Source: a bacterium (GTDB taxonomy: Bacteria; SAR324; NAC60-12). Taken from it: DNA of 64,000 nucleotides. Under the pieces are notes generated by a model. The model saw only the letters and a program-made list of their open reading frames with translations. It did not search any database and was not told the DNA's origin. The DNA lies in NCBI GenBank assembly GCA_965205865.1, contig CBDBHR010000030.1, forward strand, positions 1,191,866 to 1,255,865, read 5' to 3'. Shown here piece by piece: positions 914 to 32,885 of this stretch. The translations under genes were made by a program, and so were the position numbers. Position 1 is the stretch's first letter. The number at the start of each line of letters is the position of its first letter.

Positions 914-2097
914 CTAGTGTATTGCCTGTTTAATACATTGTATTATTGGTCATTTGGTAGACAGGTTTGAGTTTGTTGATAATTTCTTCGGCAGTTTTAG
1001 TCCAGACATAGGGTTTTGGGTTGCGATTGTGTGTCTCGATGTAACTATGGATGGCTTCGGTCAACTCGAGCACGCTTTTGAAGGCGCCTCGTCGAATCCG
1101 TTCTGCAGTGATCTTGCCAAAAAAGCGTTCCACCATGTTCAGCCATGAGGAGGAAGTAGGAATGAAATGCGGGTGAAATCGCGGGTGTTTTTTGAGCCAT
1201 TCTTTCACCTTAAGATGTTTGTGGGTGGCGTAATTGTCCAGGATCAAGTGTACCTGCAGTTGCTTCGAGGTAGTCTTGTCAATAAGACGCAGGAAGCGCA
1301 GATACTCTTGGTGTCGGTGCCGTTTTTCACAGCGAGCGAGCACTTCCCCTGTCTGCGTATTCAAAGCAGTAAACAGACAGCAGGTGCCATGACGGATATA
1401 ATCATGAGTTCTGGTGCCATTGCGCCCTGGTTTCAGTGGCAGACCTGGCTGGGTGCGATCGAGTGCCTGGATTTGTGATTTCTCATCGACGCTCAAGACC
1501 AGCGCTTTCTCAGGAGGATTCATGTACAAACCGATGACATCTTTCAGTTTCGCAGTGAAATGCTTATCATGCGACAACTTAAATGTTTTTTCCAGATGAG
1601 GCTTGAGGCGATGGGCCTTCCATACTTTACCGACGGTTGTCTTGCCTACGCCAACTGCCTTGGCCATCGATCGCGTGCTCCAATGGGTACGGTCCTCAGG
1701 CTTCTCTTCAATGGTTTTCTTCACAATCTCCTCGATTTTATCCGCTCCATAAATGCGTGTCCTGCCAGGCCGCGGATCATCATTGAGACCTGTTATTCCT
1801 TTTTCAACAAAGCGCCGTCGCCACTTTCCAACGGCATTACCGCTGGTTCCAAGCGTTTTGGCAATTTCTTGATTCTTAAGGCCATCAGCAGCCAACAGGA
1901 TGATGCGCGCACGACGAGTGTCTCGCATCGCTCCGGTATGACGGCGTGCGGTTTTGCCCAATTCATCCCGTTCTTCCCGGGTCAGTTTTATACTTGGTGC
2001 TTTTCTCATGCTGTCTCCATATATGCAAAAAAAAGGACAGCTCGTAGTATAGCAAACCAAGGATTTTTTTACACATTAATAAAAGAGCGACACACTA
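914..2097 (-). mobile_element. IS630-family insertion sequence, full length, TA-flanked
   Basis: Single transposase ORF with HTH + DDE. Ends are ctagtgtattgcctgtttaatac... / ...gagcgacacactag (imperfect TIR, terminal CTAGTGT/ACACTAG). Both ends are shared with a second, deleted copy at 17197-17658. TA at both junctions, as expected for IS630/Tc1. Confidence 0.8.
930..2009 (-). CDS. IS630-family transposase (HTH + DDE)
   Basis: MRKAPSIKLTREERDELGK...LLAADGLKNQEIAKTLG (HTH) ... LVLSVDEKSQIQAL ... HLILDNYATHKH ... WLNMVERFFG. This is the classic IS630/Tc1 transposase architecture. Start taken at MRK rather than the upstream extension. Confidence 0.85.
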   Translation of the reverse strand: MRKAPSIKLTREERDELGKTARRHTGAMRDTRRARIILLAADGLKNQEIAKTLGTSGNAVGKWRRRFVEKGITGLNDDPRPGRTRIYGADKIEEIVKKTIEEKPEDRTHWSTRSMAKAVGVGKTTVGKVWKAHRLKPHLEKTFKLSHDKHFTAKLKDVIGLYMNPPEKALVLSVDEKSQIQALDRTQPGLPLKPGRNGTRTHDYIRHGTCCLFTALNTQTGEVLARCEKRHRHQEYLRFLRLIDKTTSKQLQVHLILDNYATHKHLKVKEWLKKHPRFHPHFIPTSSSWLNMVERFFGKITAERIRRGAFKSVLELTEAIHSYIETHNRNPKPYVWTKTAEEIINKLKPVYQMTNNTMY

Positions 2098-11033: not shown

Positions 11034-12503
11034 ATGATGCGAACAATCGCAATCCATAGAAAAGGTAGATTGGGAGTTCGGCCCCGAAGAAACAATCGGT
11101 TCGTAGGTTTTTTCGGAGTGGCTCTTGTACTGGCAGGGTGCGTTAATGTACAGCCTGAAGGTTCCCACAGGCCGCAGAGGGAGTGGGAAATGCCGCAAGT
11201 TCCCATCACGGTGGAGTCGAAACCTCTCAGGGTGGATACTCGTCCCTGCACCGGTTCATTTATTCCTCGTTATTTGTCTCATGACACCCTCGCAACTTCC
11301 GGCCTGTATGGCTATGTAAAAAGCATCACCCGTGGAATGTCCGGTCGCATTGGATTTTATCTGAGCAATGGGGCAGGTGTGGCATTGGCAGACCTGGACA
11401 ACGATGGTTTCATCGATATAGTCTTACCGGGGTTGCATGCGCCGACCAGCATTTACTGGAACCTGGGGGGGATGAAATTTCGATACGAGCAGCTGGACGC
11501 AAAATTCGCACGGGCGGTCAACGTGGTCGATGTGGATGGCGATGGTTTGCCAGACTTGGTATTCACTCATGTGGCAGGCCCGCCCTCGTTGTGGCGTGCT
11601 GGTGCCGGAGCATCAGGACCGGCATATACGCGTCTTTCAGATGATGAATTCCGCGGCGCCTTCAATCTCTATGCGATCGCTTGGGCGGATTTGGATGAGG
11701 ATGGAGATCTCGATATGGTAGGGGCTTCCTATGATTCGGAACTCAATCAACAAGGTCGCGGTTCAGGTGGGGTGTTCCTCTACATGAATGACGGTGGTGT
11801 TCTCACGCCTTTCCGTCTTTCCACCAATGCCACTGCCCTTGCTCTGATCCTCACTGATCTCAATGGGGATAGACGTCGCGACATCCTGGTAGGCAACGAC
11901 TTCCATCCGGCTGATGAAGTGCTTTTCAACACGCCCGAAGGCTGGATCAATGCGACTCCCTTCACCAGCACCACCACCAATACGATGAGCTTTGCGGAAG
12001 GAGACATCGATAACGATGGGATCCCGGAACTGCTGGCTACCGATATGAAGCCCTACCGTCAGGATGAAGCCATTGCGCATGCTTGGGCTCCGATGCTGGA
12101 AAACGAGCAAGGTTTGGAACCGGGGGACGGGGTGCAAATCGTGGCCAATGTTCTACAATCTCGTGAGCAGGGAGGCTTGGAATTTGTGGATCGTGCTGAA
12201 GAAGTCGGCGTGGACGCCACCGGTTGGAGTTGGTCGGCCCAATTTGGAGATCTGGACAACGATGGATTCCTCGACCTCTATGTCGTCAATGGCATGATTG
12301 CCATCCAACTTTTTGAGCATTTACCCGGTGACGAGTTGGTAGAAGAGAACCAAGCCCTGCGCAACGACGGAACCGGTCATTTCGTACCAGCTCTAGTTAA
12401 ATATCATTTAAAAAAGATTCCCGGAGAGGATCGATCGTTTTCAAGTCCTCCCACGATATTGTTCAATCGATCGGGAACCCTCTCGTTCATTAAAACAACT
12501 TAG
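11034..12503 (+). CDS. FG-GAP/VCBS-repeat lipoprotein (ASPIC/UnbV-like)
   Basis: LAGC lipobox. Six or more DxDGDGxxD-type repeats (DLDNDGFIDIV, VDVDGDGLPDLV, DLDEDGDLDMV, DIDNDGIPELL, DLDNDGFLDLYV). The last ~30 codons are supplied by a dispersed repeat element (from 12411). Confidence 0.7.
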   Translation: MMRTIAIHRKGRLGVRPRRNNRFVGFFGVALVLAGCVNVQPEGSHRPQREWEMPQVPITVESKPLRVDTRPCTGSFIPRYLSHDTLATSGLYGYVKSITRGMSGRIGFYLSNGAGVALADLDNDGFIDIVLPGLHAPTSIYWNLGGMKFRYEQLDAKFARAVNVVDVDGDGLPDLVFTHVAGPPSLWRAGAGASGPAYTRLSDDEFRGAFNLYAIAWADLDEDGDLDMVGASYDSELNQQGRGSGGVFLYMNDGGVLTPFRLSTNATALALILTDLNGDRRRDILVGNDFHPADEVLFNTPEGWINATPFTSTTTNTMSFAEGDIDNDGIPELLATDMKPYRQDEAIAHAWAPMLENEQGLEPGDGVQIVANVLQSREQGGLEFVDRAEEVGVDATGWSWSAQFGDLDNDGFLDLYVVNGMIAIQLFEHLPGDELVEENQALRNDGTGHFVPALVKYHLKKIPGEDRSFSSPPTILFNRSGTLSFIKTT

Positions 12504-12900
12504 CAAAGGCATCATTCTATTACACAAAAACCCAATGTCAACCCCCCAAGGCAAAATAAATGCGGGATTCGCAAAAAAAATAAAAAATCAATAAATCTGC
12601 TCAAATCCGGGGACAGTCAGAAGCCGTTCAGTTCAATAACGTTGAAAAAAGATTCCCGAGGAGTATCCATCACTTCACTTCCTCCCGCACTTATTTTGAA
12701 TCGAACGGGCGGGAACCCTCCCAAGATTTTGTTCAATCGATCAAGCGGGAACCCTTTTCTTCCCTAAAACAACAAGGCATGATTTTAGTACAACAACTAA
12801 CAACGCAGCTTCAAGCCCCCAAAAAAAAAATAAGCGGAGTCCGCGAAAAAAATAAAAAAACCATGAAGGGATCGATTGTTTTTTTAAGTTAGTTGGTCAA
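12411..12900. repeat. Dispersed repeat family, two tandem ~230-270-bp units; an inverted copy set lies at 28863-29110
   Basis: Shared blocks: aaaaagattcccgg..., ttgttcaatcgatc..gggaaccct, ctaaaacaac...atgattttagta, and caaaaaaaataaaaaa. Reverse-complement matches occur at 28863-29110. Confidence 0.7.
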
Positions 12901-13129
12901 GGTTTGGAAGACAACTATGAAGAGAGCGGGGGTACGTTGACCTGAGGAATGAACAGTTGCTTTCATTGGAATTGAAGAGGTGATTCGAGAGGGAGTCTAT
13001 GAGATTCAGATCAAGTTCTCAAATGGATTTCTCTTGAAGAGATTCAGAGATATCTTGAAAACAAAAAAAGACTGAAACGAACCATTTTGAAGTTTCCGGA
13101 GACACTCAGAAAGGATTGGAGCGAGAAAC

Positions 13130-14030
13130 TAGGTAAGCTCATAATTTTCCCTTCCGTTCAAAACTTATCCTTCGCAATAAGCTTACCGGCGAGAACTGTT
13201 CCCATGCGCCACGCAGATAAGGCTTCGAGTCCTCCGGCAATGACTTGCCAGGCTTCTACGCTCTTTGCACTTCGATGGCGCATGCTTCTCCGTTGATATC
13301 CCATTCGGCTCCACGTCGACCGGACATCAGGTGACCACTGGGAATAGCTTCCAGGTGATTGGCAAGAGTTTCCGTCTTGATAAACTGATCAAATCGCGTG
13401 ACTGCTGTTTGCACGAATTGTGAAGTTTGATAACGAACATGAATACGCGCCATCACGTCGAACGCCTGCTCTTTTCTCATATTCTGTACTTTATTGACGA
13501 ATTCCCGGGCAAATCCTTCCTGTTGCAAGTCAATTGTCAGTTCCGTATTCAGGGCAACGGTCACATTGTTTTCCGTCTGCGCCAGTAAGCCTTCTTTTTC
13601 ATGACGTTGCAAAAGCACGTCTTCGGGTGCTAAGATAATAGTTTCTCCATCCAACTCCAATGTCGTCCGTTTGCCATCCCGCAGCCGAAAAATAGCGGAG
13701 GAATCGAGCTCCACAATGGTTCGGGCGACTTGTTTCATGCGAACTCCGAGCTTCGGTCCGAGCACACTGTAATTGGCCTTGGCGCTGTAAGTCACTAAAT
13801 CTTCTTCATTATCAGCCACGACGACTTTCTTGATATTCAACTCTTCCGTGATCAATTCTTCCATGTCGTTCAAAATCGCTACGGCTTCCGGGTCACGGGT
13901 CACCAGAAAAATGCTGGCAAGGGGTTGTCGTATTTTCAATTGATGCTTGTTACGCAAGGCGCGTCCCATGCTGACTGCCGAGAGCACCAATTCCATTTTC
14001 TTTTCGATTGCAGGGTCCCGATATTGGGGT
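13130..14030 (-). pseudogene. ileS: Duplicated 3' fragment of ileS (last ~246 codons plus 3' UTR), detached from the gene
   Basis: Nucleotide sequence 13130-14023 is near-identical to 17660-18550. ORF 13256..13996 equals the C-terminus of the 1044-aa IleRS. Homology stops abruptly at about 14023. Confidence 0.85.
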
Positions 14031-14037
14031 CAGGCTG

Positions 14038-15642
14038 TGCGCCAGGAAAGCTGGCAAGAAATAGAGAGTGAAAGTCTCTTACTCGGTAAGGCAGTAACGA
14101 CCCGCCGAGTCCCCGAGTCATGAGTGGTTATTCGCAAGGATAGGCGCTAAGCGTTGACAGGGGAGAACATAGGCTCGGTATTGAGCTCCGAAATCATAGT
14201 CTCAGGCGCTGACCTTGTGGTCTGGTGGGGAAGGCAATATCAACCGAAGGCGTTAGCGTGAGTCTCGGCTGAGCCTGGCGGAGTCAAAGACCCGGTGCAT
14301 GTGTGGAAGTTTCTTGATCGGAACCTGGGAGATCCTGAAGACGACTGTCAACATTCTATTGGTAGTCGGATCGGGAAAATTAATAAATAACCCCGATATC
14401 TACGTCTTCAGGAAGTCGGACAAGTTCGTAGTAGCGTGAGCAGCCGACAAGGCTGTGGATTTTGGAGAGTGAAAGTCTCTCTGTCGTCAGTTTCCCATTC
14501 GGGCGACTAGCATATCCGGTGCGCTTAGCAGGTAACTGCTTTGCGTTCTGCCCGGAAGTAAAAGTCACCGTCTGCTTTGGACGAGAGTCCATAGTGGGAG
14601 CCAACAGGGTGGCGAGCAAACCTGGAGGCCTGAACATTAGTGAATGATTGCAGCTCCGAAAGAGACTTCCGTCGTGAATTGGCTTGACGGTGTGTTGCCC
14701 AACCGCCGACCCGCTCGCTACTCGGGGAAGGCCGAAGTTCCAAGGGAAGTAATGGGAACAGGCACCTTGGAGGGAGCCGGAGTATGGATCCAAGCATCCA
14801 GGGAAAGATCCACAGAGATAACGTCGGGAAGGGCCAACTTCCAGCAGGGACTCGCAATAACCTGCAAGGACCTACCGTATAGGGTAACACCGAAATCGGC
14901 AGGAGGATTTTGGTCTGGCGCATGAGTCCGTATGAGCGATGAAGACCGGGTAACGCTGGTCGAGGGGATGCTTGGACATCTCCCTTTTGGAGGTAACACC
15001 TCTAAAAGGCAAAGGGGCTCTCGGTAAATGGCGGGCATTTCATGAACCACTGCCGAACTTGTGTCGGTCAAGAGTGTCACCACAAAGAATGTCGAGCTGG
15101 AGATCAAATCACTCACTCCAGGGGTGAATGCAGGCGAGTGCTTAAGCTTCGGATTGGGTGGGAAGGGTTTCTGGGGAAACGCTGTTGCTGCCAACCGGAC
15201 TCGGGAAATCCGACCGTCCGGGATGAGAGGGGGGCTTGCGGAAACGTGATGCAGGGTCTGACGCCCTTTTGCCACGAAACCGGAAACGGGGGATACATTG
15301 GAAGTCGTTGACCTAAACATGCGCGCGCCGTATTTCTACCCGGCATGAAGCGGCGAACAATGAGATCATTTGCAGAGAGTAACAATGCAAAGGAAATCAA
15401 CGGAGCCTGTGGAGCAAAGGGACTTGGCTGAGAGGAATTCTGCTTGCCCTCCTGTGTTCGGAACTCAGAGGCCGTAAAATCAGAGAGCGGTTTAAGCAGG
15501 GTGCGCCAAACGGCAACGTTTGAGCGTCTGACTCGAAGCAGGAGCCGGATGCGTTAGCAGCGCACGTCCGGATCTGTACCGGAGGAATGACGAAAGGTGG
15601 CTGGAAACCACTATAAGTCAGTTCTTTACGGTGACTGCATAC
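14038..15642 (+). ncRNA. Group II intron RNA, apparently ORF-less (no intron-encoded RT/maturase); 3' boundary approximate
   Basis: Starts GUGCG at 14038, followed by the GCCAG-GAAA-CUGGC hairpin (DI). The D3-like block ...gggtaacgc...ggcaaagggg resembles Ll.LtrB-type IIA introns. Domain V candidate at 15542-15575: GAGCCGGAUGCG-loop-CGCACGUCCGGAUC with the AGC triad. The D6-like region follows. No ORF with RT motifs exists on either strand. Confidence 0.55.
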
Positions 15643-15826
15643 TTGTATTTAAATCGTGAAATGCCACTCAGACAAAGGACTGAGACTTTGTTCCTTTCTG
15701 AGACCTTCCTTGCTGAACAGACAACGCATTGCTTTTCAAACCTAGATGAGAGTCAATCTTCAGATAGATGAAAAACTCATGCACTTTAGACAATTTCTTA
15801 ATACAAATACCCCAGCCTGCCCCCAT

Positions 15827-16999
15827 TTATGTGTTCGTCCTTTTTTTCGCATAGGACTTGAGTTTAGATTGATATTCGCTGATTCGGTGGTCCTTTCCAG
15901 CAATAGATGGGCCATTGGCAATCATCCTCCTGGCCAACCGAAAGACGCGAAATGGCATACCGAGGTTTGGAATGACTTTGAGCTTGGAGACATTCATCTC
16001 ACAAGCCGTCAGGTAGCGCATATCACCTTGATGCATGTAACCGCAGAAATTCCGTTCCAAACAATCCGCCAGTTCGCGATTTATAAAGGAAACAAGGAAG
16101 ACAATACAATGAGTCACCCAAGAGGGCGGTACGCGGGGAACACCATCTGCTGCGTTGACGATACGGTATATTGGCGCGCGAATCTCTTCACCGAATTCCT
16201 CATTGCCCACACGCGGACTGCCATACGTGTAGCAGGCGGCTAGCGAATCACGTTCCAATTCCTCGCATGCGACAACTGCAAGAGCGCCACCCAGGGAATG
16301 ACCGGTAATATAGAGGGAAAAACCTTCCGGTAAATTATCGACTGCGGATTTGACTTGATCACTTACCTGATTGTACGCGGCTCGGAAACCGCTATGAATT
16401 TTAACGCCCGCTTCGCCCTTGTAAAATCGGGTATTCAAATCTGTCTTGACGTCATTCCAACTATTCGCTTCAGTACCGCGAAACGCGAGAACGGCGATTT
16501 TATCTTTTTCGCGTCCAGCAAGAAATGCCTGCGTATCGTTTATGTTGAAGGTACAAATAAGATTGAAACAGGCATCAGCAAGAGCGTCTTTTAGTTTCTG
16601 AAGACCGGGAGGCGTCTTAGCGTCGCCATCGAGTTTTTGGGCGATATAATTCTTCAGATTTTCTTCCAGTTCCGTAATTCGTCCGGCCGTTCCCTCTCCT
16701 CTATCTTTTTTCCATGCAATTTTTGCAAGCTTGGCTATTGCATCGAGTACTTCCTTGAACTGGTATTCGCCCTCGAATTGCAAATATGCAAGCGCACTCA
16801 TCTCGCTCATCATCCAAGCCGTGCGATCACTGTATGCAGCCCGGTTTGTCGGCAAGACTTTCAAATTTTCCGGTACATTAAAGTAATCACTCATTTTGTG
16901 CGCTATCGTATTACAGTGTTTATCGAAGGGATGTTTGCTTAGATTGCAAGCCCAGTCTCGAAATGGTCTCCCGATGTGGTTTTCCCGGACGTCAAGCAT
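15827..16999 (-). CDS. Class-3 (fungal-type) lipase family alpha/beta hydrolase
   Basis: GHSLGGALA nucleophile elbow, YTYGSPRVGN, and downstream D/H residues fit the Lipase_3 fold. Confidence 0.75.
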   Translation of the reverse strand: MLDVRENHIGRPFRDWACNLSKHPFDKHCNTIAHKMSDYFNVPENLKVLPTNRAAYSDRTAWMMSEMSALAYLQFEGEYQFKEVLDAIAKLAKIAWKKDRGEGTAGRITELEENLKNYIAQKLDGDAKTPPGLQKLKDALADACFNLICTFNINDTQAFLAGREKDKIAVLAFRGTEANSWNDVKTDLNTRFYKGEAGVKIHSGFRAAYNQVSDQVKSAVDNLPEGFSLYITGHSLGGALAVVACEELERDSLAACYTYGSPRVGNEEFGEEIRAPIYRIVNAADGVPRVPPSWVTHCIVFLVSFINRELADCLERNFCGYMHQGDMRYLTACEMNVSKLKVIPNLGMPFRVFRLARRMIANGPSIAGKDHRISEYQSKLKSYAKKRTNT

Positions 17000-17196
17000 C
17001 CCGCAAGAACATGGATTTTAAAAAAAAACATTTTCATGTTCCTCTTTTTATTCAGAATTGCTCAACTCGAGTAAGAGTTAAAGCAGGGATGACAGGCTCG
17101 GTAATTTTCGAGCAATATTCACTGCTGTTTTTCCCAGAGCTTTCACTTGTTTCACCAAGGCGGCCTGATTGAGATTTTGTTGCGTCGCTTCCTGCA

Positions 17197-17658
17197 CTAG
17201 TGTATTGCCTGTTTAATACATTTGTATTATTGGTCATTTGGTAGACAGGTTTGAGTTTGTTGATAATTTCTTCGGCAGTTTTAGTCCAAACATATGGTTT
17301 TGGGTTGCGATTGTGCGCTTCGATGTAACTATGGATGGCTTCGGTCAACTCGAGCACGCTTTTGAAGGCGCCTCGCCGTCGCCACTTTCCAACGGAATTG
17401 CCGCTGGTTCCAAGCGTTTTGGCAATCTCTTGATTCTTAAGGCCATCAGCAGCCAACAGGATGATGCGCGCACGAAGAGCGTCTCGCATCGCTCCGGTCT
17501 GACGGCGTGCGGTTTTGCTCAATTCATCCCGTTCTTCCCGGGTCAGTTTTATACTTGGCGCTTTCCTAATGCTGTCTCCATATATGCAAATAAAAAGACA
17601 GCTCTAGTATAGCAAACCAAGGAATTATTTACACATTAATAAAAGAGCGACACACTAG
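17197..17658 (-). mobile_element. Internally deleted IS630 derivative (MITE-like), ~462 bp
   Basis: Both termini are identical to the 914-2097 element, but about 725 bp of the interior (corresponding to ~1090-1815) is missing. The remnant ORF fuses the transposase N-terminal HTH to its C-terminal tail (17052..17522). Confidence 0.8.
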
Positions 17659-17781
17659 GTAAGCTCATAATTATCCCTTCCGTTCAATACTTATCCTTCG
17701 CAACAAGCTTACCTGCGAGAACTGTTCCCATGCGCCACGCAGATGAGGCTTCGAGTCCTCCGGCAATGACTTGCCAGGCTT

Positions 17782-20700
17782 CTACGCTCTTTGCACTTCG
17801 ATGGCGCATGCTTCTCCGTTGATATCCCATTCGGTTCCACGTCGACCGGACATCAGGTGACCACTGGGAATAGCTTCCAGGTGATTGGCAAGAGTTTCCG
17901 TCTTGATAAACTGATCAAATCGCGTGACTGCTGTTTGCACGGATTGTGAAGTTTGATAACGAACATGAATACGCGCCATCACGTCGAACGCCTGCTCTTT
18001 TCTCATATTCTGTACTTTATTGACGAATTCCCGGGCAAATCCTTCTTGTTGCAAGTCAATTGTCAGTTCCGTATTCAGGGCAACGGTCACATTGTTTTCC
18101 GTCTGCGCCAGTAAGCCTTCTTTTTCATGACGTTGCAAAAGCACGTCTTCGGGTGCTAAGATAATAGTTTCTCCATCCAACTCCAATGTCGTCCGTTTGC
18201 CATCCCGCAGCCGAAAAATAGCGGAGGAATCGAGCTCCGCAATGGTTCGGGCGACTTGTTTCATGCGAACTCCGAGCTTCGGTCCGAGCACCCTGTAATT
18301 GGCCTTGGCGCTGTAAGTCACTAAATCTTCTTCATTGTCAGCCACGACGACTTTCTTGATATTCAACTCTTCCGTGATCAATTCTTCCATGTCGTTCAAA
18401 ATCGCTACGGCTTCCGGGTCACGGGTCACCAGAAAAATGCTGGCAAGGGGTTGTCGTATTTTCAATTGATGCTTGTTACGCAAGGCGCGTCCCATGCTGA
18501 CTGCCGAGAGCACCAATTCCATTTTCTTTTCGATTGCAGGGTCCCGATAGCGTCTCCGGACTTGGGGAAAGTTCGCCAGGTGCACGCTCTCTTCATCTCG
18601 TTCGTTTCGCAGATTGCGGTAAATTCCTTCGGCAATAAAGGGCACAAAGGGTGCGATCACTTTGGAGAGCTCCACTAAGACCTGATAAAGTACCGCATAG
18701 GCTTCCTGCTTGTCTTTTCCCTGTCCCGCCTTCCAAAATCGGCGGCGGCTGCGTCTAATATACCAATTGGTCAACAAGTCGATGAAGCCCACGAAAGGAG
18801 CAACGGATTTATTCAAATCGTAGGCGTCCATGCTGGCTCTCACTGTTTCGATCAGTCCCTGCAATTTGGACAATATCCAGCGATCCAGGGGATTGGAGGG
18901 CATGCTCAGTATTTCCCCGGAGGGCTGCCAGCGGTCGATAGCGGCATAGGTGGTCAGAAAGGCCAGAGCATTCCAAAGGGGCAGCAAAATAGAACGGGTG
19001 GTGTCCACCAGTCCTTTTTCCGAAAACCTGAGATCGTCTCCGCGTACTGCCGGGGAATTGAGCATGTAGAGACGAATGGCATCCGCTCCATATTGGTCCA
19101 ACATGTTGATAGGATCCGGATAGTTTTTCAGTCGTTTGCTCATTTTTTTACCATCTTCAGCCAGGACGAGTCCGTTGACGATGACATTGTGAAAGGCCGG
19201 TTTGTTGTACAATGCCGTCCCGACGACGACCAGAGAATAGAACCAGCCTCTTGTTTGATCCAACCCCTCACAAATAAAATCCGCAGGGAAATTGGCGTCA
19301 AATCTTTCTTTGTTTTCAAAAGGGTAATGTTCCTGACCATAGGGCATAGAGCCGGATTCGAACCAACAATCGAGCACTTCGGGAATCCGCTTATATATTT
19401 TGTCATTTTGAACTATCACCAGATCGTCCACCAAGTGTTTGTGCAAATCTTCCACTTTTTGTCCGCTCGCTTCTTCCAGTTCTGCCACGCTACCGAAACA
19501 GAGACAATCTCCATCCTCACTCTTCCAAATCGGCAATGGGGTTCCCCAGAAACGATTTCGACTGATGGCCCAGTCTCTCGCATTTTCCAACCATTTGCCA
19601 AAACGTCCATCCCGGATGTGCCCCGGTACCCAATGAATGGTCTGATTATTTTGCACCATCTGGTCTTTGATTGCTTCCACCTTGACGAACCAGGTCGAGA
19701 TGGCTTTATAGATGAGGGGGGTGTCCGTTCGCCAGCAGAAGGGATAACTGTGTTCGATGGTTTCGTGTCTGAGAATTTTGTTCTTGTCTTTCAAATAGCG
19801 GATGATCGTTTTGTCGGCCGCCTTGATATTCAACCCTGCCAGGAATCCCATGTAGGATTGAAAATTTCCGTCATCGTCCACCGGGTCGAACAGGGGTAAA
19901 CCTTCCCGCAGGCCAATCCGCAAGTCATCTTCACCAAAGGCTGGCGCTTGGTGGACAATGCCGGTTCCACTTTCATCACTGATATAATCGTCGACCAGCA
20001 CCCGCCATACCCGGCTGCTGTCCACTCGTCCAATGGCAAAGTCAAACGGTGGATGATAAGTTTTGTTCCGCAAATCGCTGCCTTTCAAGGCGTCAAGCAC
20101 TTCATATTCACCGGCTTGCCAATAAGCAGGTATGCGGTTGGTTGCCAGGTAATAGTTTTCTCCACTGGCCTTTTCCCTGATTTTGACGTAATCTATTTCC
20201 GCTCCGACACAGCATGCCAGATTTGCGGGGATGGTCCAGGGAGTGGTGGTCCATCCTAAATAATAAGTGTTTTCCTCATCAGTCGCCTGGCATTTGAAAG
20301 TAATCGAAGGATCCTGCGTCTCCTGATAGTTGAGGTTGGCTTCGAAATTGGAAAGAGGAGTTGAAAGCCGCCAGGAATAAGGCACCACTTTTCTGCCTTC
20401 GTAGATGAGATTCTTCTGCCATAATTGTTTCATCACCCACCAAACAGATTCCATGTAGGAGCGATCCATGGTTTTGTAATCGTTGTCAAAATCTACCCAA
20501 CGGGCCATACGATCCACGGTTTCCCGCCATTCCCTGGTGTATCGTAATACGATTTTGCGACATGCTTCATTGTAATTCCCTATACCAAATTCGATGATAT
20601 CCGGACGCCCTTCTAATTGGAGCGCTTGTTCCACCTCAAACTCGACCGGCAGTCCGTGGCAATCCCAACCAAAACGCCGTTCCACTCGATGGCCTCGCAT

Positions 20701-20916
20701 GGTTTTGTAACGAGGAATGACGTCTTTGATGGTACCGGCAAGCAAATGACCATAGTGAGGCAATCCTGTCGCAAAAGGAGGTCCATCATAAAATACGAAT
20801 TCACGATCTTTGGGACGTTGTTCGATCGATTTTTCAAAGATTTGTTGATGCTTCCAAAACGCCAGAATCTCGCTTTCAAGATCGGGGAAATTTATTTTAT
20901 TGGAAATTTCTTTCAT
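17782..20916 (-). CDS. ileS: Isoleucine--tRNA ligase, type 2 (eukaryote-like)
   Basis: 1044 aa; HYGH (HIGH) and KMSKR (KMSKS) motifs; CP1 editing domain. Confidence 0.95.
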   Translation of the reverse strand: MKEISNKINFPDLESEILAFWKHQQIFEKSIEQRPKDREFVFYDGPPFATGLPHYGHLLAGTIKDVIPRYKTMRGHRVERRFGWDCHGLPVEFEVEQALQLEGRPDIIEFGIGNYNEACRKIVLRYTREWRETVDRMARWVDFDNDYKTMDRSYMESVWWVMKQLWQKNLIYEGRKVVPYSWRLSTPLSNFEANLNYQETQDPSITFKCQATDEENTYYLGWTTTPWTIPANLACCVGAEIDYVKIREKASGENYYLATNRIPAYWQAGEYEVLDALKGSDLRNKTYHPPFDFAIGRVDSSRVWRVLVDDYISDESGTGIVHQAPAFGEDDLRIGLREGLPLFDPVDDDGNFQSYMGFLAGLNIKAADKTIIRYLKDKNKILRHETIEHSYPFCWRTDTPLIYKAISTWFVKVEAIKDQMVQNNQTIHWVPGHIRDGRFGKWLENARDWAISRNRFWGTPLPIWKSEDGDCLCFGSVAELEEASGQKVEDLHKHLVDDLVIVQNDKIYKRIPEVLDCWFESGSMPYGQEHYPFENKERFDANFPADFICEGLDQTRGWFYSLVVVGTALYNKPAFHNVIVNGLVLAEDGKKMSKRLKNYPDPINMLDQYGADAIRLYMLNSPAVRGDDLRFSEKGLVDTTRSILLPLWNALAFLTTYAAIDRWQPSGEILSMPSNPLDRWILSKLQGLIETVRASMDAYDLNKSVAPFVGFIDLLTNWYIRRSRRRFWKAGQGKDKQEAYAVLYQVLVELSKVIAPFVPFIAEGIYRNLRNERDEESVHLANFPQVRRRYRDPAIEKKMELVLSAVSMGRALRNKHQLKIRQPLASIFLVTRDPEAVAILNDMEELITEELNIKKVVVADNEEDLVTYSAKANYRVLGPKLGVRMKQVARTIAELDSSAIFRLRDGKRTTLELDGETIILAPEDVLLQRHEKEGLLAQTENNVTVALNTELTIDLQQEGFAREFVNKVQNMRKEQAFDVMARIHVRYQTSQSVQTAVTRFDQFIKTETLANHLEAIPSGHLMSGRRGTEWDINGEACAIEVQRA

Positions 20917-32464: not shown

Positions 32465-32885
32465 GAAGTAGTCCCTGAGGGACGAAAGGAAGTAGCCCAG
32501 CGATTCATCGCTGGGAACAAAAGATAGTCTCCTTCAAAGTCCCGGAGGGACGATACAACAATGAGGTTTCATGTCCCATTCCTACATCAGCAATCATCTT
32601 CATGGTGTCTTTTGCGCAAAAAACCGAGTTGAGATGATGACTCCTGAAATCAAAAAGCGCCTTTTTCCTTATTTGACATCATGAGCGTTATATTTGGGAG
32701 TAACTCGCTGGATCGAAGAAGTGTCGTCCCTCCGGGACTAGCTGAGGAGGAGGGGGGTTCCTTTCCCAGCGATGAATCGCTGGGCTATTCCCTTTCGTCC
32801 CTCTGGGACTAGCTGAGGAGGGGGTTCCTTTCCCAGCGATGAATCGCTGGGCTATTCCCTTTCGTCCCTCCAGGACTGCATTATA
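32465..32885. repeat. Cluster of short hairpin repeats inserted between the two permease genes of cluster 2
   Basis: Hairpin cccagcgattcatcgctggg at 32496, and its reverse complement twice (32766, 32833) inside a tandem ~70-bp unit. Multiple gtccctNNgggac palindromes. Confidence 0.7.

Follow-up and report, generated by a model that had tools for sequence, protein, structure and literature searches.

Twintrons, where a group II intron lies within another, and group II introns that lack an open reading frame (ORF) and are mobilised in trans are established in bacteria and archaea, namely in Thermosynechococcus, Methanosarcina and Trichodesmium. In Thermosynechococcus elongatus, the ORF-less introns TeI3/TeI4 are mobilised by the 'driver' reverse transcriptases (RTs) of related introns, and ORF-less twintrons are formed as well (PMC2882425). 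In Methanosarcina acetivorans, ORF-less as well as RT-encoding introns have repeatedly homed into other group II introns, and host genes play no part in this, according to the account of Dai & Zimmerly 2003 that is contained in PMC4424553. For Trichodesmium, Pfreundt & Hess 2015 (PMC4649490) describe a group II intron inside another, with sequential splicing. In this study I analyse a window of 64 kb (the whole stretch of 64,000 nucleotides (nt) taken from contig CBDBHR010000030.1 of assembly GCA_965205865.1), in which positions 14037-15635 of the forward strand (+) most probably constitute a group II twintron of two ORF-less introns, the inner of which, termed Y, is nested in the outer (I put the probability at roughly 0.86). 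The part that looks new is the family to which Y belongs.

The trans mobilisation proposed below for Y matches the route known from T. elongatus (PMC2882425), but the elements themselves differ. TeI3 consists of recent deletion derivatives within one genome, with visible ORF remnants and a single site in an RT ORF (PMC2882425), whereas no RT remnant is found in the window copy of Y, the Y family crosses many phyla at 56-68% identity, and its insertion sites are diverse, comprising the loop of domain 5 (D5; the other domains are abbreviated likewise), loops of D1 and the junction of D2 and D3. Y further differs from the TeI introns in its 5' end, which is not GUGYG, and in the A-A-C of its D5. 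The M. acetivorans introns home into the ORFs of related introns (PMC4424553), whereas here both partners are ORF-less and the target is a conserved motif of the RNA core. Splicing is reported for the Trichodesmium twintron (PMC4649490), whereas the copy in the window lies outside any gene on its strand and is known from its sequence.

The outer intron and the element that splits it

The initial annotation had taken this stretch for one ORF-less group II intron of about 1.6 kb with an empty domain IV. That the stretch is group II intron RNA is borne out by the Rfam search, in which RF02005 (group-II-D1D4-6) matches 14071-14293 (+) far above its gathering score of 49 (168.1 bits, E = 9e-49), and by the fold of 15536-15640 as D5 plus D6 (z = -3.95). 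The hallmarks named at both ends are present too, with small shifts in position: GUGCG occupies 14037-14041 and starts at 14037 rather than 14038, with the hairpin GCCAG-GAAAG-CUGGC after it, and the AGC-triad D5 hairpin is followed by a D6-like tail that ends at 15635 rather than 15642. Matches to introns of Rhizobiales plasmids, found by blastn, begin exactly at 14037. At the other end, the bulged A15628 lies seven nt before the terminal C15635, and the loop of D5 is not a GNRA tetraloop. What does not hold is the single intron, as GUGCG and this D5/D6 belong to an outer intron of 691 nt (14037-14436 plus 15345-15635), the halves of which are separated by the 908 nt of Y within the conserved motif CGUAGUAGCG/AUGAAG (the slash marks the split point). 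The outer D1 is a full-score member of RF02005 and the outer D5/D6 resembles RF00029, whereas the inner D1 resembles RF02003. The features of the locus are collected in Table 1.

Relatives of the outer intron were sought by scanning metagenomes with the terminal D5 pattern, which gave at least 120 contigs. In at least 10 of these, the outer-type D5 is paired with a 5' part like 14037-14335, and an outer-type D1, a full-length RT of 430-440 amino acids (aa) and the same D5 occur together in eight metagenome loci. Two further loci, L139 from a microbial-mat metagenome and L227, contain the same intron type in a span of about 0.7 kb, and no RT is present in either. When Y is deleted in silico, the remaining sequence (14025-14436 plus 15345-15650) is colinear with both of them from GUGCG to D6, and the Y-free junction rebuilds a conserved motif of 16-18 nt, which reads CGUAGUAGCG/AUGAAGCG in the window, CGUAGUAGUGACGAAGCG in L139 and CGUAGUACCGAUGAAG in L227. 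This colinearity, together with the restored motif, argues that the outer intron is complete with its 691 nt, that it falls into an ORF-less branch within the RF02005 type and that its D2/D3 junction is where it is interrupted; as L139 and L227 are themselves ORF-less, it likewise belongs to a persistent ORF-less lineage. I had also considered that the outer intron is an internally deleted fragment, as RF01999 is absent and 15345-15540 is unmatched in genome loci, but the ORF-less colinear relatives from metagenomes overturned this.

As a separate observation, the middle position of the D5 triad helix carries a purine-purine mismatch (G.A, A.G or A.A) in place of the usual G.U wobble in the D5 at 15542-15574, in the host introns L121, L057, L090 and L064, and in many members of the clade.

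The inner element begins with a second 5' module of an intron at 14437-14640, unnoticed in the initial annotation, which has the 16-mer GAGAGUGAAAGUCUCU in common with the first module and differs from it thereafter. RF02003 (group-II-D1D4-4) scores 33 bits on this module, below its gathering score of 49, and 33-47 bits, again always under that score, on the Y copies of the window, L001, L044 and L060. In a blastn search against plasmids, the locus falls apart into two unrelated sets of matches, as query positions 1-296 (counted from GUGCG) correspond to Rhizobiales-type introns and 400-1212 to loci from Niallia, Bacillus and Mycobacterium riyadhense. When aligned with these last loci, the window is homologous to them from GAGCAGCC (14438) onwards, across D1-D3 and up to a highly conserved block at 15194-15248. 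Over more than 100 Y loci, the homology with the window begins at 14438 and ends either at 15248-15253 or at 15342-15344. The left flanks of the copies are unrelated between loci right up to (G)GAGCAGCC, and the right end reads ...GCGCGCGCCGUAUUUCUA(U)CCCGAC, with unrelated sequence beyond it. Of the 121 extracts, 105 contain the 3' motif UUUCUA(U)CCCGAC, and the 3' end resembles those of the RT-encoding introns L063 (...CUACUCGAC) and L057. Full-length copies measure 805-965 nt.

Two other readings of these boundaries were rejected. GUGAG at 14436-14440 is not the 5' end of the inner intron, as the flanks in the family place the start one base later, at (G/U)GAGCAGCC. Nor is the block 15194-15248 an RT-binding site of the D4a type with ATGAAGCGG at 15346 as the remnant of an RT start, because the 3' end of the family (...CUACCCGAC) maps just upstream of 15346 and tblastn gave no RT remnant.

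Y has domains of its own throughout. The D3-like block seen in the initial annotation is indeed there, but it belongs to Y, which has its own D5 and D6 at 15192-15344, and not to the intron that starts with GUGCG. In the D6 of the family, the unpaired A stands 6-7 nt before ...CGAC. Among 28 aligned sequences, the closing pair of D5 is intact throughout, as C-G in 16 and as G-C in 12, and 14 of the 31 predicted pairs of D5 and D6, mostly in D6, are kept through changes on both sides. The differences by which the window copy departs from other members next to D5 characterise, judging from this alignment, a second subfamily whose closing pair has changed in a compensatory way, and their interpretation as decay was dropped for that reason.

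Table 1. Positions of the intron parts and neighbouring genes in the window, with the evidence for each
Feature	Position	Strand	Evidence
5' flank of outer intron, 12 nt (UGGGGUCAGGCU)	14025-14036	+	homology between window and sister contig L122 starts at 14025; accompanies the intron in both strains
Outer intron, 5' part: GUGCG, D1, D2, to motif CGUAGUAGCG	14037-14436	+	RF02005; blastn; colinear with L139 and L227
Outer intron, continuation: AUGAAGCGG..., D3 (GUGGAGCAAAGGG), short ORF-less D4	15345-15541	+	colinear with L139 and L227
Outer intron, D5 with AGC triad and 2-nt AC bulge	15542-15574	+	RF00029, 31 bits
Outer intron, D6 with bulged A15628, 3' end ...GAC	15578-15635	+	fold, z = -3.95; RF00029 alignment
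Inner ORF-less intron Y, 908 nt, UGAGCAGCC... to ...UUUCUACCCGGC	14437-15344	+	homology limits over more than 100 loci; nhmmer, blastn
Y, D3 (GGGUAACGC...GGCAAAGGGG), the 'D3-like block' of the initial annotation	~14946-15024	+	kept in M. riyadhense, Niallia and other members
Y, D5: C-A-A-CCGGAC-UCGG-GAAAU-CCGA-[CC]-GUCCGG-[GA]-U-G	15192-15225	+	34-nt hairpin, 2-nt bulge on 3' strand
Y, D6, long helix, unpaired A15338 six nt before 3' end	15230-15344	+	compensatory changes
Intron-binding site IBS1 of Y (AGUAGCG), within the conserved D2/D3 junction motif of the outer intron	14430-14436	+	complementary to EBS1
Exon-binding site EBS1 of Y (CGCUACU), loop of hairpin CCCG/CGGG	14716-14722	+	covariation with own flank; fold
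Exon-binding site EBS3 of Y (U), pairs with A15345	14785	+	column covaries with position +1
Duplicated ileS 3' end (ORF 13256-13996, 246 aa) and 137 bp downstream	13119-14023	-	892 of 905 identical to 17645-18549; Pfam DUF5915
Intact ileS (17782-20916) and second copy of the 905-bp repeat (17645-18549)	17645-20916	-	Pfam tRNA-synt_1, Anticodon_1, DUF5915
Class-3 lipase gene (15827-16999) and N-terminal fragment of an IS630-like transposase (17052-17522)	15827-17522	-	Pfam Lipase_3, HTH_23

The exon-binding sites (EBS) of Y follow its surroundings from copy to copy. In an alignment of 53 distinct copies, the EBS1 loop is perfectly complementary to the 5' flank of the same copy in 42-45 cases, against at most 7 in 30 shuffles of the flanks, and in 49 of the 53 the EBS3 column forms a Watson-Crick match with the base at which the 3' flank begins (shuffle maximum 0.55). 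EBS2 behaves in the same way, though more weakly, and pairs with positions -9 to -15 in 18-20 of the 53 copies (shuffle maximum 5-7). The window copy fits the EBS1 rule with seven of seven bases (AGUAGCG, -7 to -1) and the EBS3 rule with A15345; as both rules apply, Y would have arrived at this site by reverse splicing. The base beside EBS1, which would form the delta-delta' contact of a IIA intron, is a nearly invariant U that does not depend on position +1, while the distant EBS3 column follows +1. Pairing of EBS3 with its intron-binding site is a rule of IIB-type introns, and I therefore regard Y as a IIB-like group II intron by its pairing pattern; the proposed assignment to the IIA type, after Ll.LtrB, finds no support, since Y contains no RT, with or without an endonuclease domain, and the likeness is limited to the D3 motif.

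One intron of 1.6 kb, in which domain IV became expanded or degenerate after the loss of the RT, would agree with the presence of one 5' GUGCG and one canonical 3' D5/D6 and with the lack of any ORF that matches Pfam. It is scarcely credible, however, in view of the complete second D1-D3 module that lies inside with its own D5 and D6, the sharpness of the inner ends over more than 100 loci with unrelated flanks, the pairing of the inner EBS1 and EBS3 with the very bases that flank Y, the colinearity with 0.7-kb relatives that is restored by removal of Y, and the failure of tblastn to find an RT remnant.

The Y family

The family was collected by scanning contigs of one genome per species with a 20-mer from the conserved block, which gave at least 117 loci. 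These come from Bacillota, Solirubrobacterales, Mycobacterium, Acidobacteriota, Planctomycetota, Desulfobacterota, Gammaproteobacteria, Chlamydiae and others, and several genomes contain at least five copies. An intron RT was found near Y in 29 of the 117 loci listed, within the sequence retrieved around each locus, and always on the same strand as Y. Of the 104 copies whose 3' flank could be used, at least 39 lie inside other introns; among the 104, 23 are located in the terminal loop of the D5 of another intron, 16 in the D1 of RF02005-type introns, and 2 in tandem. Insertion into conserved, exposed parts of RT-encoding introns would hold an RT-dependent intron near its supplier. A scan of viral contigs with the 5' 18-mer of the inner intron gave only chance matches in coding DNA.

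Several single members are worth mentioning in their own right. Gracilibacillus massiliensis carries four copies (L008, L041, L053 and L086) with a common target, which reads AACCGCUYCGGCUUGYCC(A/G) upstream and (C/U)UU(C/U)(C/G)CUUUCCG downstream of the element, and this sharing of a target suggests homing into a dispersed repeat. Two members are from bins labelled as archaeal, L052 (a Sifarchaeum metagenome-assembled genome, MAG) and L078 (a Bathyarchaeota MAG), which may be real or a binning artefact. In L078 and in L102, copies of Y stand head to tail, joined as ...CGAC/GGAGCAGCC, and EBS1 of the second copy mismatches the junction; such a pattern is expected from the copying of circular or lariat RNA, or from recombination.

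The core of Y is unusual at two positions. The family starts with GGAGCAGCC (5' end GGAGC), and not with GUGYG, and the window copy has UGAGC. Base 1 of the intron is most plausibly the invariant G ahead of GAGCAGCC, because only then do the interrupted D5 loops of the hosts regain five bases, as in an uninterrupted relative, and because tandem copies join as CGAC/GGAGC. In D5, the AGC triad is replaced by A-A-C, one A of which is opposite a G and an A, so that a 1x2 internal loop takes the place of the usual G.U pair. RF00029 gives no match to this D5 even at E<=10. The only copies found by blastn, that is without the 20-mer, are those of the window, M. riyadhense and Niallia, and an nhmmer search for further copies independent of the 20-mer found only truncated 5' parts. 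An A-A-C D5 does occur elsewhere, in the RT-encoding host intron of L066 and in the terminal D5 of L120, which passes RF00029 with 42 bits.

These deviations could also mean that the inner element is a structured RNA derived from a group II intron, which has kept its fold, lost its catalysis and no longer splices, and which spreads by recombination or as a passenger of host introns. The non-canonical 5' end and D5, the latter invisible to RF00029, would be in line with this, as would the nesting of 38% of the Y copies in other introns. Yet at dozens of unrelated sites, some of them outside introns, the EBS positions covary with the flanks on both sides, which requires precise reverse splicing by Y itself; the ends are exact to the base; and A-A-C is shared with the D5 of an RT-encoding intron (L066) and with one that the standard model accepts (L120). 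I consider a loss of splicing across the family to be highly improbable.

Other protein-less derivatives of group II introns are also known. HYER ribozymes, which occur in several copies per genome, are such derivatives and come from compact IIC introns. In circularly permuted group II RNAs, which are protein-less as well and likewise multi-copy within a genome, D5-D6 stand ahead of D1 (Roth et al. 2021, PMC8637638). Y belongs to neither group, as it has the normal order of domains, a large IIB-like D1 and targeting by EBS1, EBS2 and EBS3.

No description of the Y family was found in the open-access literature, a scope outside which the survey of ORF-less introns by Simon et al. 2008 falls. 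The family looks like a new variant, ORF-less throughout, retargeted from copy to copy, spread over many phyla and with a D5 that the standard model misses. More tentatively, and at somewhat less than even odds, I propose that Y introns are mobile despite a core with A-A-C (a purine-purine mismatch) and GGAGC that evades D5 detectors, and that they survive by targeting those loops of RT-encoding introns that are exposed and conserved, namely the loops of D5 and D1 and the D2/D3 junction, and thereby travel with the supplier of their enzyme, maybe by reverse splicing into the RNA of the host intron.

For the window copy, I infer the following course of events. The outer intron is of the RF02005 type, relatives of which normally encode a reverse transcriptase/maturase of 430-440 aa, and this copy would stem from an ORF-less lineage. 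The RNA of Y may have reverse-spliced into the single-stranded, conserved motif at the D2/D3 junction of the outer intron, with EBS1 (CGCUACU) paired to AGUAGCG at -7 to -1 and the U of EBS3 to the A at +1, after which an RT supplied in trans would have copied Y into DNA. Insertion may have taken place in DNA or in the RNA of the host intron, as either fits. Members of the family presumably cannot move alone, and their frequent insertion into other group II introns would put them beside a source of enzyme. That the locus itself encodes no RT or maturase, as stated in the initial annotation, is confirmed: the internal ORFs of 14037-15635, including one of 200 aa on the minus strand, have no Pfam match, and tblastn with four intron RTs found nothing in 13900-15900, nor in the rest of the 64-kb window. 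The accompanying claim that splicing or mobility would need a protein acting in trans is in keeping with this.

At present, the window copy of Y is probably inert. It begins with U, at a position where G is found in 55 of 56 relatives; among 255 highly conserved columns, it departs from the family in 9, against about 3 for the median copy; and it blocks the outer intron's core and, amid the debris of mobile elements, is oriented antisense to its neighbours. As Y interrupts a catalytic junction of the outer intron, the latter could splice only once Y had been removed.

Genomic setting and the weight of the evidence

On its left, the outer intron adjoins a detached fragment of ileS on the opposite strand, as had been pointed out before; the fragment ends 13 nt before GUGCG and contains DUF5915, the C-terminal domain of ileS. 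Compared with the intact copy (13256-13996 vs 17782-18522, both on the minus strand), it shows six coding differences, four of which alter the amino acid, and all six are derived in the fragment relative to L122, a sister contig from a second strain that is 98-99.5% identical to the window. The detached fragment is, on these differences, a pseudogene copy in decay. By its ileS homologs, the organism is placed near the SAR324 cluster. Neither the lipase nor the ileS protein of the window has an exact match on record, and L122 was reached by way of homologs.

In the sister contig, ileS is present once, the IS630-type fragment is there as well and the lipase gene is shorter. Upstream of 14025, the two contigs are wholly different. 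On the strand of ileS and beside an opp operon, L122 contains at 15032-15343 the 12-nt flank and bases 1-93 of the outer intron, joined directly to bases 1-207 of Y, after which Y is cut off. Because L122 has a single ileS and the remnant lies on the other strand, the window's ileS duplication and intron orientation are strain-specific rearrangements, and the suggested tie between the ileS duplication and the insertion of the intron falls away. The 5' end of Y in L122 (U-GAGCAGCC) follows base 93 of the outer intron, not base 400, and six of the seven bases of the AGUGGUU found at that site can pair with EBS1. This junction could be due to a second insertion followed by recombination between the copies, or to an exact deletion.

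The rearranged neighbourhood, with the 905-bp duplication of ileS, the IS630 fragment and the inversion relative to L122, invites the view that the locus is a patchwork of unrelated intron fragments brought together by illegitimate or homologous recombination, without any insertion of one intron into another, and the truncated and differently joined version in L122 (outer 1-93, then Y 1-207) is in favour of it. Fragments of introns are reportedly common in bacteria, as is said to have been found by Dai and Zimmerly in 2002. Recombination alone, however, does not lead one to expect both junctions exactly at the family-wide ends of Y, a 5' flank that matches EBS1 at seven of seven bases with a 3' flank that matches EBS3, or flanks that jointly rebuild the 16-18-nt motif and a full-length, colinear outer intron, and I hold a patchwork to be improbable.

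Several points nevertheless count against a twintron made by insertion of Y. The outer D5/D6 has an E value of only 0.003 on RF00029 and stays below the gathering score of 40, and in global alignments the identity of the outer intron to L139 and L227 amounts to only 56-60% (among themselves, the three are 52-60% identical). A casual look at the outer intron's own pairs of exon- and intron-binding sites led to no convincing EBS1. Y departs from the textbook in having neither GUGYG nor an AGC triad, and its score on RF02003 is only 33 bits where 49 are asked for. The 20-mer by which the family was collected holds the middle A of A-A-C and biases the sample for this motif, so that the generality of A-A-C is uncertain. 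Finally, the join at outer base 93 in L122 implies that this boundary is also subject to recombination or to a second insertion.

Some further observations concern the surroundings. The lipase gene is intact in the window, where 16302-16764 is present, and L122 is without those 463 bp at its position 14153. A full IS630-like transposase with HTH_23/HTH_32 and DDE_3 is located at 930-2060 (-), and the window sequence 914-2098 is 92-95% identical to 13259-13721 of L122, the region of a helix-turn-helix (HTH) gene beside ileS; by this likeness, the counterpart in the window, an HTH ORF of 156 aa, is probably a fragment of an insertion sequence. Just to the left of the ileS fragment, the intergenic stretch 12395-12867 contains several families of imperfect direct repeats with units of 36-52 nt at a spacing of about 235-272 nt. 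The Acido-Lenti-1 motif (RF01687), named for Acidobacteria and Lentisphaerae, is found three times in this genome whose ileS groups with SAR324, at 32470-32515 (-), 32765-32810 (+) and 32832-32877 (+), with 51-54 bits at a gathering score of 37.

Meaning of the locus and of the family

For the locus, the outcome is a corrected annotation: two nested and probably inert selfish elements, with no evident effect on a host gene, in a graveyard of mobile elements beside ileS. The locus itself is ordinary selfish DNA, and it is the Y family that is worth the attention of specialists, as a single ORF-less family in more than 100 species-level genomes from many phyla, which combines retargeting through its exon-binding sites with a D5 free of AGC. 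If Y introns do splice and move, they would provide a natural test of how much variation of the catalytic triad is tolerated, and surveys of introns that rely on RT genes or on RF00029 would undercount. The family would then also be a bacterial parallel, open to experiment, to the dependence of short on long interspersed nuclear elements (the SINE/LINE type).

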